Assembly: GCA_963750165.1 (NCBI GenBank)
Contig: CAVVPN010000011.1
Coordinates: forward strand, 544,001-608,000
Direction of reading: 5' to 3'
Length of the DNA stretch: 64,000 bases
From: an uncultured Gemmataceae bacterium
GTDB taxonomy: Bacteria > Planctomycetota > Planctomycetia > Gemmatales > Gemmataceae
The notes below the pieces were generated by a model that made no database searches, was not told the DNA's origin, and saw only the letters and a program-made list of their open reading frames with translations. Shown in pieces: positions 57,206 to 61,616 of this stretch; the stretch's first letter is position 1; each line of letters begins with the position of its first letter. The translations under genes were made by a program, and so were the position numbers.

Positions 57206-58222
57206 TCAGCCCAGGTCGCGGCCGAGCGCCCGGGCCACCTGGCGGCACTCCTGCATCAGCTGGCGGAAGGCCGCGGGCGTCAGCGCCTGGAAGCCGTCGC
57301 TGAGCGCCTTGCCCGGGTCGGGGTGGACCTCCACGATCAGCCCGTCCGCGCCCGCGGCCACCGCGGCGCGGGCCATCGGCACCACCAGGTTCGCCTTGCC
57401 GGTGCCGTGGCTCGGGTCCACCATCACCGGCAGGTGCGTGGTCTGCTGCAGGTGCGGCACCGTCGCCAGCGGCAGCGTGAAGCGCGTGTGGTCCTCGAAC
57501 GTGCGGATGCCGCGCTCGCACAGGATCACCTGCGCGTTGCCCGTTTTGAGGATGTACTCCGCCGCCAGCAGGAACTCGTCCATCGTGGCGCTGGGGCCGC
57601 GCTTGAGCAGCACCGGCAGCTTGCTTTCGCCGACCGCCTCCAGCAGCGGATAGTTCTGCATGTTCCGCGCCCCTACCTGGAGCACGTCCGCGTAGTTGCC
57701 GACCAGCGCCACCTGCTCCGGCGCCATCACCTCCGTCACGACCGCCAGCCCCGTCTCCTCGCGGGCCAGGGCCAGCAGCTCCAGGCCCTTTTCCTTCATG
57801 CCCTGAAAACTGTACGGGCTGGTGCGCGGCTTGAACGCGCCGCCGCGCAGGCCGGTCGCGCCCGCCTCCTTGACAAGGTGCGCGATTTCGAGGATTTGCG
57901 CCCGACTCTCGACCGAACACGGGCCGGCGATGACGCCGATGACCTTGCCGCCGACCTGGAGCCGGCGGGCACTGACGCAGGTGCGCTCCTTCTTGACCTC
58001 GGTGCTCGCCATCTTGTACGGGGCCAGGATCGGAACCACTTTCTCCACCCCTTCCAGTGTCTCGAGCGCCTGCTTGGCGCCGTCGCGCTTCTCGCCGAGG
58101 GCCGCCACCACCGTGCGCTCGGTGCCGACGATCACCTGGCTGTTCAGTCCGAGTTGCCGGATGCGCTCGACCACGTCGTCGAGCAGGCGCTGCGCCGCGC
58201 CCGGTTTCATGACCACGATCAT
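57206..58222 (-). CDS. aroF: 3-deoxy-7-phosphoheptulonate (DAHP) synthase, type I-beta with N-terminal regulatory domain
   Basis: MIVVMK start after [46 protein letters not shown] and DPSHGTG. Confidence 0.95.
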
Positions 58223-58329
58223 TGGGAAACTCCCTGGGGTACTGGTTACGGAACCTGCGCTCTTCCCTGCGACCCTGCCGGCGTTTCCCTCCGCCAGAAG
58301 AACCGTCCTGCCGTGAGGTCGCACAACTG

Positions 58330-58391
58330 CCGTACCGGCAAGCGGCCCGCTTGCCGGTTGTCGTCGGCAAGCGGGCCGCTTGCCGGTACGG
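58330..58391. repeat. REP-like doublet in the aroF 5' region
   Basis: ccgtaccggcaagcggcccgcttgccgg...tcggcaagcgggccgcttgccggtacgg. Confidence 0.8.
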
Positions 58392-58398
58392 GGCACAC

Positions 58399-58441
58399 AA
58401 ACGCAAACGGCCCTGAAACCCGTGTTGGGTTTCAGGGCCGT
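58399..58441 (-). terminator. Attenuator terminator upstream of aroF
   Basis: Perfect 15-bp stem (58407-58421 / 58427-58441) with a 5-nt loop, then TTGCGTTT on the minus strand. Confidence 0.8.
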
Positions 58442-58471
58442 GAGTGTTTCAAGAGCAAACCCGGAACCACC

Positions 58472-58534
58472 TCACATCCTGACACCCAGGAGAGGGGTAA
58501 AGTAAAACCAGAACCGGGAAACCAAGCTCTGCAT
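58472..58534 (-). CDS. Putative aroF leader peptide MQSLVSRFWFYFTPLLGVRM
   Basis: A 20-codon ORF with five consecutive aromatic codons (TTC TGG TTT TAC TTT). Its 3' end is complementary to the 5' arm of the downstream terminator. Confidence 0.8.
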   Translation of the reverse strand: MQSLVSRFWFYFTPLLGVRM

Positions 58535-58550
58535 CGTCAATCCGGGTTGG

Positions 58551-58588
58551 AAAAGAGGCCCCGCGGTGAGATAGACACCGCGGGGCCT
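58551..58588 (-). terminator. Intrinsic terminator upstream of the leader ORF
   Basis: Perfect 13-bp stem aggccccgcggtg / caccgcggggcct with a 7-nt loop, then CTTTT. Confidence 0.75.
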
Positions 58589-58770
58589 TACGAACAAATT
58601 ACGGCTGCACCGACGGCAGCCCGTCGGCGGCGTCAGCTCAGCCGCACCTGGTTACCACTACACACGGGACCACCTCCTTCCGCTAGACACTCCCCAGCCC
58701 CGGGCGGATACCAGCACACACGGGGGTGGGCTCTAGCCCGTCACGCCACGGTAGCGCGACCCGATCAAAC
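58551..58770 (-). ncRNA. Putative structured small transcript carrying a 10-codon ORF (58633-58665, MCSGNQVRLS)
   Basis: Bounded by a promoter and a terminator. AAGGAGGTGGTCC SD with 7 nt between AAGGAGG and the GTG. Several stems. Confidence 0.5.
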
Positions 58771-58776
58771 AAAGAG

Positions 58777-58805
58777 ATCATACACACGACCGAAAACCGG
58801 GGCAA
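58777..58805 (-). promoter_or_regulatory. Sigma70-type promoter
   Basis: TTGCCC-N17-TATGAT with TGTG just upstream of the -10. Confidence 0.65.
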
Positions 58806-58871
58806 GCGGTTCGCGCCTTTTTCTCGATTTCCCGCCCGGCGCCGCGGCCGCACAATCTCTATAATGCCGGC

Positions 58872-59543
58872 ATGTATGTATTGCTGTTTGACATCGACGG
58901 CACCCTGCTGAACAGCGGCGGCGCCGGAAAGTCCGCCATCGAGGAAGCGCTGGCGGTCCAGTTCGGCGTCGCGGTTACCGCTCAGGTAACCTACAGCGGC
59001 CGTACCGACCGCGCCATCGGCCGCGACCTGCTGCGGCTGCACGGCATCGCCGAGACGGCCGAGAACTGGCAGCGGCTGCTGACCGGCTACCTGGAGCGCC
59101 TGCCGGCGGCCCTGGCGCGACACCGCGGCCAGGTGTTGCCGGGCATCGCGGAACTGATCGGACAGCTGGAGGCGCGGACGGACGCGGTGCTGGGGCTGCT
59201 GACCGGCAACGTCCACGCCGGGGCACGGCTGAAGCTCGGCCATTTCGGCCTGTTCGAGCAGTTCGCGTTCGGCGGCTTCGGCGACCACCATTACGACCGC
59301 GACGAGGTGGCGCACCTGGCCCTGGCGGCGGCGCGGGCGCATCTGAAGCGTGAGGTTGCCGCGGAGCGGGTGTGGGTGATCGGCGACACGCCGCTGGACG
59401 TGCGCTGTGCGCGGGCCATCGGGGCGCGGGCCGTGGCGGTGGCGACCGGCTGGCATTCGCTGGGGGAGTTGGCGGCGGTGGGGCCGGACGTGCTGGTGGC
59501 GGATTTGTCGGACCCGCTGCCGCTGCTGGAGCGGTTGACCTGA
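58872..59543 (+). CDS. HAD-family hydrolase (phosphoglycolate phosphatase-like), probably leaderless
   Basis: FDIDGTL, LLTGN and IGDTPLD. TATAAT lies 6 nt before the ATG and there is no SD. Confidence 0.9.
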   Translation: MYVLLFDIDGTLLNSGGAGKSAIEEALAVQFGVAVTAQVTYSGRTDRAIGRDLLRLHGIAETAENWQRLLTGYLERLPAALARHRGQVLPGIAELIGQLEARTDAVLGLLTGNVHAGARLKLGHFGLFEQFAFGGFGDHHYDRDEVAHLALAAARAHLKREVAAERVWVIGDTPLDVRCARAIGARAVAVATGWHSLGELAAVGPDVLVADLSDPLPLLERLT

Positions 59544-59558
59544 GAAGGAGAGTCGGCC

Positions 59559-61616
59559 ATGCACACCTGGCAAGTCGGTGTTGTCGGCGGGTTGGTGGTC
59601 GTTGCTCAGCTGCTCGCCCAGCCAGGGGCCGCCCCCGGCCAGGAAAAGGAGAACGTGTTCAAGGCGGACGTGGTCGTCTACGGCGGCACGCCGGGCGGCA
59701 TCATCGCCGCCGTGACGGTGGCACGCGAGGGCAAGCGCGTCGTGCTGCTGGAGCCGGGTAAGCACCTCGGCGGCATGCTCACCGGCGGCCTGTGCGCCAC
59801 CGACACGGGTAACCGCGCCACCATCGGCGGTTACTCCCGCAAGTTCTTCAACCGCGTCCGTGCCTACTACGTCAAGAAGTACGGCGCGAAGTCCGAGCAG
59901 GTGCGCGACTGCTCCGACGGCTTTCGGCCCGAGCCGCACGTCGCCGCCATCATCTTCAAGGAGATGCTGGCCGAGGCGAAGGTCACGGTGCATTATGATT
60001 CCCCGCTCGCGGCCGTGGGGTTTGAAAACAAGATCCCCCGCATATTAAACATCGGGACCCGTGAGAAAATCTATTTCGCCAAGGTCTTCATTGATGCGAC
60101 CTATGAGGGTGATTTGCTCGCGCTGGCCGGCGTCAAATACGCCGCGGGCCGAGAGGGCCGAGAACAATACAACGAGTCGCTGGCCGGCGTTCAGGAATTC
60201 AGCAAGTTCCACCAGTTCTCCGTCAAGGTGTCGCCCTACGACGACAACAAAAAGTTGCTTCCGTTGGTGCAACCGTGGCCCTACGGCAAGCCGGGCGAAG
60301 GCGACAAGAAAGTGCAGGCGTACAACTTCCGCCTGTGCCTGACGCGGAACCCCGACCTGCGGATGCCCTGGCCCAAACCCAACAAATACGATCCGAAGCG
60401 CTTTGAATTGCTGGCCCGCTATCTGGAGAAGAACCCCACGGTCAAGTTCGGTCAATTGTGCAACCCCGTCAAGTTGCCCAACGGCAAGACCGACACGAAT
60501 AACAATGGCCCCATTTCCACGGACCACATCGGCGCCAACTACGATTATCCGGACGGCGATGTCAAGACTCGCAAGCGCATCCATGACGATCACGTCGAGT
60601 ACACCAAGGGCTTCTTCTACTTCCTCGCCACCGACCCGCGCGTGCCCAAAAAGTTGCAAGCGGAGGTCAACAGCTGGGGCCCGTCAAAGGGCGAGCACGT
60701 GGACAACGACGGCTGGCCGCACCAGCTCTACATCCGCGAAACGCGGCGCATGATCGGCGCCTACGTGATGACGCAAAGCGATTTGCTGGTCAATCGCACC
60801 AAACCCGATTCCGTTGGCCTGGGCTCTTACAACGCCGACTCGCATCACGTGCAGCGCGTCGTCAAGGACGGCTTCGTCATCAACGAGGGTGATTTCCAGG
60901 TCGGCGTGAAGCCGTATGCCATCCCCTACCGCAGCCTGATCCCGAAGGAAACGGAGTGTACCAATCTGCTGGTGCCGGTGTGCGTGTCCACGTCGCACGT
61001 GGCCTACGGGACCGTGCGCATGGAGCCGGTGTTCATGATTCTCGGCCAGGCGGCCGGCAACGCCGCGGTGCTCGCCATCGACGGCGGCAGCAGCGTGCAG
61101 AAAGTTTTGATAGAGAAATTGCAGGCGAAACTGAAGGTTCAGAAAGCAGTGCTGTCACCGGAGGGCCTGACGCCGAAAAGCCCGCTCAGCCTGGACCCCG
61201 CGAAGTTGCCGGGCATTGTCGTCGATGACACGCAGGCGAAAAAGACCGGCACCTGGCACGAGTCCAAGTCGGTCGGCCCGTTTGTGGGCGCCGGCTACCT
61301 GCACGACAACAACGAGAACCAGGGCAAATGCAGCATCCGCTTCACACCGAACCTGCCCGCCGCAGGCAAGTATGAGGTGCGCGTGTTCTACACCGCCAAC
61401 CCCAACCGCGCCACCCGCGTCCCGGTGAAAGTCTTCAGTGACGAAGGCTCGCTCTACGACCAGATCAATCAGCGGCAGCCGCTGAAGAACAACGAGGGCC
61501 GCAGCCTGGGTGTGTTCGAGTTTGTCGCTGGAATGAAGGGCTACGTGGAAATCCGCAATGACGGTGCCAACGGCTTTGTTGTCGCCGACGCGGTGCAATT
61601 TATTCCGCAAAAGTAA
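59559..61616 (+). CDS. Secreted FAD-dependent oxidoreductase with C-terminal golvesin/xanthan-lyase-like beta-sandwich
   Basis: VVVYGGTPGG, FIDATYEGD, QAYNFR, YIRETRR and RMEPVFM. C-terminal GIVVDD...GKYEVR...VVADAVQF. Confidence 0.88.
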   Translation: MHTWQVGVVGGLVVVAQLLAQPGAAPGQEKENVFKADVVVYGGTPGGIIAAVTVAREGKRVVLLEPGKHLGGMLTGGLCATDTGNRATIGGYSRKFFNRVRAYYVKKYGAKSEQVRDCSDGFRPEPHVAAIIFKEMLAEAKVTVHYDSPLAAVGFENKIPRILNIGTREKIYFAKVFIDATYEGDLLALAGVKYAAGREGREQYNESLAGVQEFSKFHQFSVKVSPYDDNKKLLPLVQPWPYGKPGEGDKKVQAYNFRLCLTRNPDLRMPWPKPNKYDPKRFELLARYLEKNPTVKFGQLCNPVKLPNGKTDTNNNGPISTDHIGANYDYPDGDVKTRKRIHDDHVEYTKGFFYFLATDPRVPKKLQAEVNSWGPSKGEHVDNDGWPHQLYIRETRRMIGAYVMTQSDLLVNRTKPDSVGLGSYNADSHHVQRVVKDGFVINEGDFQVGVKPYAIPYRSLIPKETECTNLLVPVCVSTSHVAYGTVRMEPVFMILGQAAGNAAVLAIDGGSSVQKVLIEKLQAKLKVQKAVLSPEGLTPKSPLSLDPAKLPGIVVDDTQAKKTGTWHESKSVGPFVGAGYLHDNNENQGKCSIRFTPNLPAAGKYEVRVFYTANPNRATRVPVKVFSDEGSLYDQINQRQPLKNNEGRSLGVFEFVAGMKGYVEIRNDGANGFVVADAVQFIPQK

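Follow-up and report, generated by a model that had tools for sequence, protein, structure and literature searches.

The window, i.e., the whole stretch of 64,000 nt analysed here, carries on its minus strand the gene for a small structured RNA, followed by an aromatic leader peptide, its attenuator and aroF. The features referred to below are:

58800..58805, minus strand: predicted −35 hexamer TTGCCC of a sigma70-type promoter, from a promoter scan
58777..58782, minus strand: predicted −10 hexamer TATGAT, with a 17-nt spacer to the −35 hexamer
58551..58770, minus strand: gene for a small RNA or mini-mRNA of about 220 nt, single copy, based on homolog searches and RNA-library contigs (58602-58765)
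58740..58760, minus strand: P1, the 5′ hairpin, with a conserved 7-nt loop and CGUG at the loop end
58682..58737, minus strand: P2, a long irregular hairpin (arms 58737-58732 and 58687-58682) that stops 2 nt short of the Shine-Dalgarno sequence
58710..58714, minus strand: P2 apical loop CUGGU, 5′ strand of a predicted pseudoknot
58667..58679, minus strand: extended Shine-Dalgarno sequence (SD), conserved over 12 nt and in this genome paired over 13-15 nt
58633..58665, minus strand: ORF of 10 codons (MCSGNQVRLS*), GTG start, TGA stop within the P3 bulge
58648..58652, minus strand: ACCAG in codons 5-6, 3′ strand of the predicted pseudoknot
58601..58645, minus strand: P3 hairpin, outer stem over the last codons, inner stem CCGACGG/CCGUCGG
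58551..58588, minus strand: T1, a likely leaky intrinsic terminator, 13-bp hairpin (58588-58556) and four U (58554-58551)
58472..58534, minus strand: aroF leader peptide MQSLVSRFWFYFTPLLGVRM with the aromatic cluster FWFYF
58400..58441, minus strand: T2, terminator of the aroF-leader attenuator, stem 58441-58407, interrupted U tail
57206..58222, minus strand: aroF, DAHP synthase plus ferredoxin-like domain (Pfam PF00793 and PF18152)

Sequence and conservation together support the predicted promoter, P1, P2, SD, ORF, P3 and 3′ hairpin. The initial annotation had named a promoter, stems, SD, ORF, hairpin and terminator, and each was found at its minus-strand position; P1 (58760-58740) and the pairing of the P2 loop with the ORF had been overlooked. 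The promoter TTGCCC-N17-TATGAT was recovered at 58805-58777 as the sole promoter-like match in a scan of 57800-59600 (shuffles 0.2 ± 0.6), the long hairpin overlapping the ORF stop is P3 (58645-58601), and the 13-bp terminator (58588-58556) indeed ends 16 nt ahead of the leader ATG (58534). A simple terminator scan missed T1 because it requires five T. Transcription of the small RNA would start near 58770. In the homologs, TTGA occupies the −35 place in 97 of 115 scored copies, and a promoter-like match precedes P1 in 123 of 151 loci. The element folds moderately better than shuffled sequences (z −2.38; 5/200). The view of a structured transcript is supported, as a probable stand-alone unit organised around its ribosome-binding site.

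On the opposite strand a divergent HAD-family gene (58860-59543, plus strand) has its promoter back to back with that of the RNA. Its TATAAT lies 6 nt upstream of the ATG (58872), as would be expected for a leaderless mRNA. Among the loci tested, this gene stands beside the RNA in this genome only.

Twenty of 24 sequencing runs listed contain a small share of a 1-kb query, and 14 of these are RNA libraries. In four RNA runs from four studies, contigs span 58602-58765 (164 nt with one difference, 151 nt with none). Two contigs terminate at 58765, a weak hint at the start site. The runs were selected for containing the stretch and the contigs come without strand, level or ends; they are consistent with transcription in close relatives, and nothing beyond. 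The missing contig cover of 58201-58508 (aroF leader) is uninformative.

The genome carries one copy of the RNA gene, and BLASTN detected the element in 15 of 24 genomes of the same family. A covariance model built from 18 copies found one copy each in 31 of 41 relatives and, phylum-wide, in 35 of 151 genomes, where absences may be due to divergence or to incompletely assembled genomes. The species collection was scanned with a pattern that specified the SD and the QxRL codons and left start, frame and stop free, which returned at least 119 loci (estimated ~130). Among the matches listed, labels were Gemmataceae, Isosphaeraceae, Planctomycetaceae and Pirellulales, and cultured genera include Tautonia and Paludisphaera. 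Our set comprised 137 loci, and removal of 11 duplicates and one locus with a short flank left 125 distinct homologs. One locus with a Burkholderiales label (L067) was considered as a non-planctomycete copy; it has neither an in-frame start nor a model match, is a chance match, and was excluded from the counts after the reading-frame tally. The covariance model gave no match in 101 genomes of that record's phylum. Four records titled Alcaligenaceae (L046, L080, L140, L142) carry typical planctomycete copies in genomes of 6.7-7.8 Mb, and these labels are probably wrong. With one copy per genome and no plasmid match, a repeat or mobile element was ruled out. Phage carriage was rejected as well: of 25 pattern matches in viral contigs one is a true homolog (L188), and the remaining 24 represent normal ribosome-binding sites or chance matches. 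The L188 contig carries the full RNA-leader-attenuator-aroF cassette, which is likely host DNA.

The 16S rRNA tail of this genome reads GGAUCACCUCCUUUCU in DNA. The SD pairs with it over 13 nt (−23.6 kcal/mol), and pairing rises to 15 nt (−26.8 to −27.9 kcal/mol, two G·U) if the mature tail is longer. The 13-nt anti-16S SD proposed earlier therefore stands as a pairing, but conservation is limited to 12 nt, the 13th base being C in 40 of 125 homologs. The strict 12-mer occurs nine times in 9.6 Mb, both strands counted. Another gene with the full 13-nt extended SD lies in this genome on contig C11 near 1871907 (minus strand), where the SD precedes a protein of 200+ residues that by eye resembles Uma2-type endonucleases.

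Of the 125 distinct homologs, 123 have a start codon in frame (GTG 113, TTG 6, ATG 4) at a distance of 13-18 nt from the SD's first base, and 122 have an ORF of 9-13 codons. The GTG ORF MCSGNQVRLS* (58665-58633) was thereby confirmed as a conserved short frame, and the homolog search suggested with it showed SD and ORF to be kept in related genomes. Deviations were seen in L013, whose 10-codon ATG frame has a shifted end, and in L007, in which the frame extends to 20 codons. All 29 distant homologs have the SD and a frame of 10-18 codons; as background, 6.6% (113/1717) of the AGGAGG-plus-start sites in the genome give 9-18 codons. Because close homologs end in TAA (72) and TAG (21) besides TGA (30), selenocysteine read-through of the window's TGA was ruled out. 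A cysteine-sensing leader was ruled out as well, since many homologs lack Cys, and no aromatic codon cluster was found in the 10-codon ORFs.

The peptide is conserved to a lesser degree. Close-set peptides are similar (M[C/S]S[G/D]NQxRLx), and pN/pS is 0.80 at codons 2-5 and 10, which lie outside the search pattern (44 distinct codon sets). The Cys codon is TGT in 102 of 102 cases, while neighbouring genes use 3 TGT versus 19 TGC. Distant peptides, e.g., MGSPNRRPSS and MIVRGSAERCLL, have little in common with that of the window. We infer that selection acts on the translation signals and much less on the peptide product. The idea of a micropeptide gene, raised in the initial annotation, consequently finds weak support: the frame is kept, but the pN/pS value and the divergence of peptides across the phylum speak against it.

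In an alignment of 100 copies to the model, which was fitted to P1 and P3 and in which kinship inflates the pair statistics, the 37 named pairs were 87.3% paired and 21 of them showed two-sided changes, a count exceeding all 500 shuffles and all slid controls. Two-sided changes occurred at all seven pairs of P1 (98.3% of cells paired) and at all four pairs of the middle helix of P2 (87% paired); the basal helix of P2 was 63% paired and the P3 helices 87.9% and 98.6%. The P3 pair 58644/58602 co-varies (z 16), and where the Arg codon changes in its first position, the residue becomes Trp or Gly with the P3 pair maintained. The stop codon of the ORF is located where the P3 bulge begins.

The apical loop of P2 is complementary to codons 4-6, and both change together. 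Many copies share the loop/ORF pair CUGGUU/AACCAG; others have UGAUUGCC/GGCAAUCA (L006, L011), GGACUUC/GAAGUCC (L148, L157), GCUACAA/UUGUAGC (L162) or GUAGAUC/GAUCUAC (L176). Copies paired better with their own partner than with permuted ones in the distant set (n = 29; 13.21 versus 10.65, 0/20000 permutations as high) and in the dereplicated set (n = 32; 13.50 versus 10.77, 0/20000), figures that are overstated because kin are not independent. In the close set the margin was small (13.59 versus 13.08, 11/20000; neighbouring control segment 12.80). A helix of at least 5 bp can form in 19 of the 29 distant copies and in 86 of the 124 close ones, and none in L014; in the window it comprises 5 bp plus 2 (−8.6 kcal/mol) and is rivalled by a local helix. 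On the basis of this co-variation, we predict a pseudoknot that encloses SD and start codon in its loop.

Two further pairings were discarded. GACGG after P1 might pair with the 3′ strand of P3, but it varies in 32 of 100 copies with no matching changes, and the ORF/P3-loop pair 58655/58619 follows clades. In Gemmataceae-type copies the T1 loop NNUAUCU (58569-58575 in the window) is conserved while its stem varies; it could pair with the AGGUG of the SD. Isosphaeraceae-type loci (L033, L034, L049 and others) have an extra small conserved hairpin between P3 and the 3′ hairpin, and their 3′ hairpin lacks a U-tract.

Downstream of T1, the aroF leader and T2 fit a textbook ribosome-mediated attenuator in folding models. 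The 5′ arm of T2 is taken by an antiterminator when a ribosome is modelled on codons 9-12, and not at codons 13 or 20. In Corynebacterium glutamicum, aroR-aroF is an aromatic leader-peptide attenuator before aroF. The window leader (FWFYF) and T2 would fit ribosome-mediated attenuation of this type; in contrast to it, the leader is apparently promoterless and stands behind a separate small RNA gene.

Among loci with at least 700 nt of downstream flank, 62 of 82 close loci have aroF behind the RNA in the same orientation and 20 do not, and it follows in none of 28 distant loci, where the neighbours are unrelated genes. A strict filter found an aromatic-cluster leader between RNA and aroF in 39 of 59 aroF-linked loci. 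A promoter-like site lies within 90 nt before P1 in 53 of 58 aroF-linked loci, within 90 nt after P3 in none of 58, and in 9 of 58 at some point between RNA and aroF (366 nt on average). The 3′ hairpin is followed by a run of at least four U in 19 of 62 aroF-linked loci versus 35 of 48 other loci, and many aroF-linked copies have no U-tract. Runs of at least five U were counted in 6 of 45 loci that have both aroF and leader, in 6 of 9 that have aroF but lack the leader, and in 9 of 17 where aroF is missing; this tally leaves out seven rows with a hairpin score below 22, includes two leader calls that are false by eye (L030, L062), and is overstated because kin are not independent.

The initial annotation had seen no separate promoter for the aroF leader and had concluded that aroF may depend on read-through. 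We came to the same view: since the leader seems to lack its own promoter, and from the position of the promoter sites and the short U-tract of T1 where the attenuator follows, read-through from the promoter of the RNA is likely and would, in the simplest reading, supply aroF transcription across T1. In 10 genomes without a downstream aroF, an ortholog of about 80% identity was not found in eight, and in the other two it lies elsewhere without the leader.

Whether translation of the mini-ORF changes T1 was modelled by pairing. In the window, T1 pairing was 0.98 free and 1.00 with a 30S on the SD or a ribosome at the stop. Means over 118 loci were 0.885, 0.883 and 0.870 for the free, 30S-bound and stop-occupied states, with shifts above 0.2 in 3 and 7 loci, respectively; the model is an equilibrium model that ignores kinetics, Rho and pausing. 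The T1 arms are free to vary together, and thus there was no sign of a conserved antiterminator. Since T1 is unchanged by modelled ribosome position, a translation-coupled first switch, as suggested in the initial annotation, is unsupported, and 20 of 82 close and all 28 distant loci have the RNA but no aroF behind it.

Several observations concern the surroundings of aroF. The aromatic leader was lost with aroF still downstream in L029, L030, L031, L039, L040, L077, L079, L095, L010, L062 and L119, and in the last three the T2 hairpin alone is retained. A long GC-rich REP-like palindrome lies between T2 and aroF (58328-58392), and its 17-letter core has eight matches in the genome, both strands counted. 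Further DAHP-synthase-family matches are at 441759 and 1127393-1128484 on contig C11 and at 242408 on contig C3, one of them split in two pieces. In two loci of another family (L169 and L174, f44) the gene immediately behind the RNA, in the same orientation, encodes a peptide-chain release factor; the hibernation factor PF02482 is absent from all four genomes sampled from this family.

A Rfam scan of the window, one of the checks proposed in the initial annotation, gave no match at the gathering score; the element is not an Rfam family. Weak matches (miRNA, F6, ClpQY, Ms_IGR-5) were dismissed as hairpin-only or low in score. The window holds neither a tRNA nor tmRNA, and 6S RNA was ruled out, its gene lying elsewhere in the genome (C12:1023817-1024003, minus strand). 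The best weak match was RF01867 (CC2171, a Caulobacter sRNA) with 25.4-25.5 bits, short of the gathering score of 75, and its alignment is confident solely over the SD, the first codons and the final hairpin, with a low-confidence middle. Like the window RNA, the CC2171 consensus opens with an extended SD and GUG and closes with a GC-rich hairpin, but it lacks P1 and P2. According to the accessible part of the source (10.1101/2022.01.24.477521), the function of CC2171 is not known. No paper on this planctomycete RNA was found in the literature searched, which covered few subscription papers. In the supplements of PMC2864571, as far as available, a summary table lists Rhodopirellula-1 as a motif with Planctomycetes; it was not among the Rfam-scan matches of the window. 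The main text, as available, of a 2026 preprint on prokaryotic noncoding clusters does not mention Planctomycetes.

The closest known genes appear to be rreB and rreR, 30S-binding small mRNAs of Alphaproteobacteria, a likeness drawn from the published description and a link that the initial annotation had not made. In the literature searched rreB was found in PMC5711450 alone (Hahn et al., RNA Biol 14:1353), and what follows is limited to the accessible text of that paper, in which Planctomycetes, a pseudoknot and read-through are nowhere mentioned. In that work, 30S binding and weak translation of the rreB RNA were observed, and the start codon was required for its decay. A 20-fold overproduction had no effect on growth, and ribosomes far outnumber rreB. 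The window RNA would share with rreB/rreR the small stand-alone transcript with own promoter and terminator (predicted here), an SD spanning the whole free 16S tail, a GTG start at equal spacing with an ORF of 10-18 codons, a peptide unshared across clades, and a neighbourhood conserved within the clade only. It differs by about 90 nt of 5′ structure (P1, P2), 12 conserved SD bases with G·U allowed, the predicted pseudoknot around the SD, P3 with its bulged stop, and aroF downstream, while rreB has 165 nt, with 8 nt ahead of a perfect 17-nt match, and its SD lies mostly in a hairpin. The order of extended SD, near-cognate start and short ORF is that of rre genes. For the stand-alone transcript, promoter and terminator are predicted by sequence and RNA contigs exist, with the U-tract missing in many aroF-linked copies as noted. 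Complementarity to 16S rRNA is 13 nt with the canonical tail and 15 nt with the longest tail, compared to at least 16 nt demanded for rre genes (PMC5711450). Because of this shortfall and the 5′ domains that are absent from rreB, we do not class the RNA as an rre member.

For the predicted fold, the uS15 operator of E. coli rpsO offers a parallel, as far as described in the available parts of PMC10931766 and PMC3985624. There, 30S binds the SD in a pseudoknot loop and can be trapped. Common to both would be an upstream hairpin loop that pairs with early coding sequence and a pseudoknot loop holding SD and start codon, here predicted from co-variation; 30S binding ahead of unfolding, possible in rpsO, would be so here as well. 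In contrast, rpsO is a full protein gene that requires its repressor, and the window RNA has a 10-codon ORF, no known repressor, no sequence likeness to rpsO and a much longer SD. Instead of a cognate ribosomal-protein gene, aroF or unrelated genes follow. Judged as an attenuator, the 10-codon ORF with T1 has no pathway codon cluster and shows no modelled switching in the equilibrium model.

We favour, with moderate confidence, the view that the element is a structured ribosome-docking small mRNA of the rreB kind that works through its fold, and that aroF rides on its promoter through a fixed leak at T1. That the RNA binds 30S, is translated and is read through we infer; 30S binding, weak translation and translation-linked decay are taken from rreB by analogy. 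As predicted from co-variation, the P2 loop would pair with codons 4-6, and the connecting loop of the resulting pseudoknot would contain SD and start codon. A 30S subunit may dock on the exposed SD with the full length of its free 16S tail and would be held until the pseudoknot melts, so that initiation would be slow. The rare translating ribosome would open the outer stem of P3 and halt at the bulge, and this stop may set the lifetime of the RNA, as shown for rreB. The selected trait would be the passage of a ribosome across the fold, not the peptide. In genomes of the Gemmataceae and Isosphaeraceae type, the aroF leader probably became placed downstream of the RNA gene. A fixed share of polymerases would cross T1 and then meet an ordinary Phe/Trp/Tyr attenuator, T2, as the regulated step.

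Other readings have to be weighed against this one. The 10-residue product itself might be functional, with fold and long SD merely holding expression low. Start, frame and stop are strictly conserved, close-set peptides are alike, and Hahn et al. interpret RreB and RreR as small proteins conserved within clades (PMC5711450, accessible text). Yet pN/pS is 0.80 at codons outside the pattern, a single Cys codon is used, residue changes track base pairing, peptides of other classes differ widely and the L007 copy reads through to 20 codons, and we regard such a micropeptide gene as unlikely. Ribosome loading on the mini-ORF might alternatively decide T1 and gate aroF ahead of the amino-acid attenuator. 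The lasting linkage to aroF (62 of 82 close loci), the second promoter not being seen, the short U-tract of T1 where the attenuator follows and the ~80% ortholog missing in 8 of 10 genomes without downstream aroF point in this direction. Against it stand modelled T1 pairing of 0.98-1.00 whatever the ribosome covers (in a model without kinetics, Rho and pausing), T1 arms that vary freely with no conserved antiterminator seen, and the RNA standing ahead of unrelated genes in all 28 distant loci; a first switch of this kind is rather improbable. In a bolder version that we likewise consider quite unlikely, the RNA would be a phylum-wide 30S clamp: once the long SD has docked on the 16S tail, pairing of the P2 loop with codons 4-6 near the mRNA entry channel would lock the 30S until released by a signal, and in Gemmataceae and Isosphaeraceae this occupancy would tune read-through into aroF.

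That the RNA stores or shields 30S subunits through the anti-SD tail, with the ORF as release route, is very unlikely, even though the whole free 16S tail is paired, the RNA is present in assemblies of four studies, and it occurs in 3 of 6 genomes without a hibernation factor (one family only). Of 151 genomes, 145 carry the hibernation factor PF02482, which rules out the RNA as its general replacement, and this genome has two matches to it; in addition, 20-fold overproduction of rreB had no growth effect, ribosomes far outnumbering it (PMC5711450, accessible text). We give hardly any weight to a trans-acting RNA that would pair with other RNAs or bind a protein through the P1 loop and the T1 loop UAUCU, with SD and ORF as stability control. 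The P1 loop is conserved and NNUAUCU is common in Gemmataceae-type copies, but the T1 loop is lost in Isosphaeraceae-type and most distant copies, and all of the best-conserved features are signals for translation.

For the preferred reading of a ribosome-docking small mRNA, the significance would lie in the rre class, which is without known purpose and of which a larger planctomycete version offers a testable structure, with a pseudoknot and a stop in a fixed bulge. If the clamp were true, aromatic synthesis in Gemmataceae and Isosphaeraceae would be gated by the supply of free ribosomes and then by charged tRNA. If T1 is ribosome-sensitive, this would amount to control in two stages, of which no example was seen in the literature searched; if it is not, it would be a clear case of an attenuated operon fed by read-through from a small-RNA gene. 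In both families the RNA appears to provide the aroF promoter, which gives it a measurable output and a likely phenotype.
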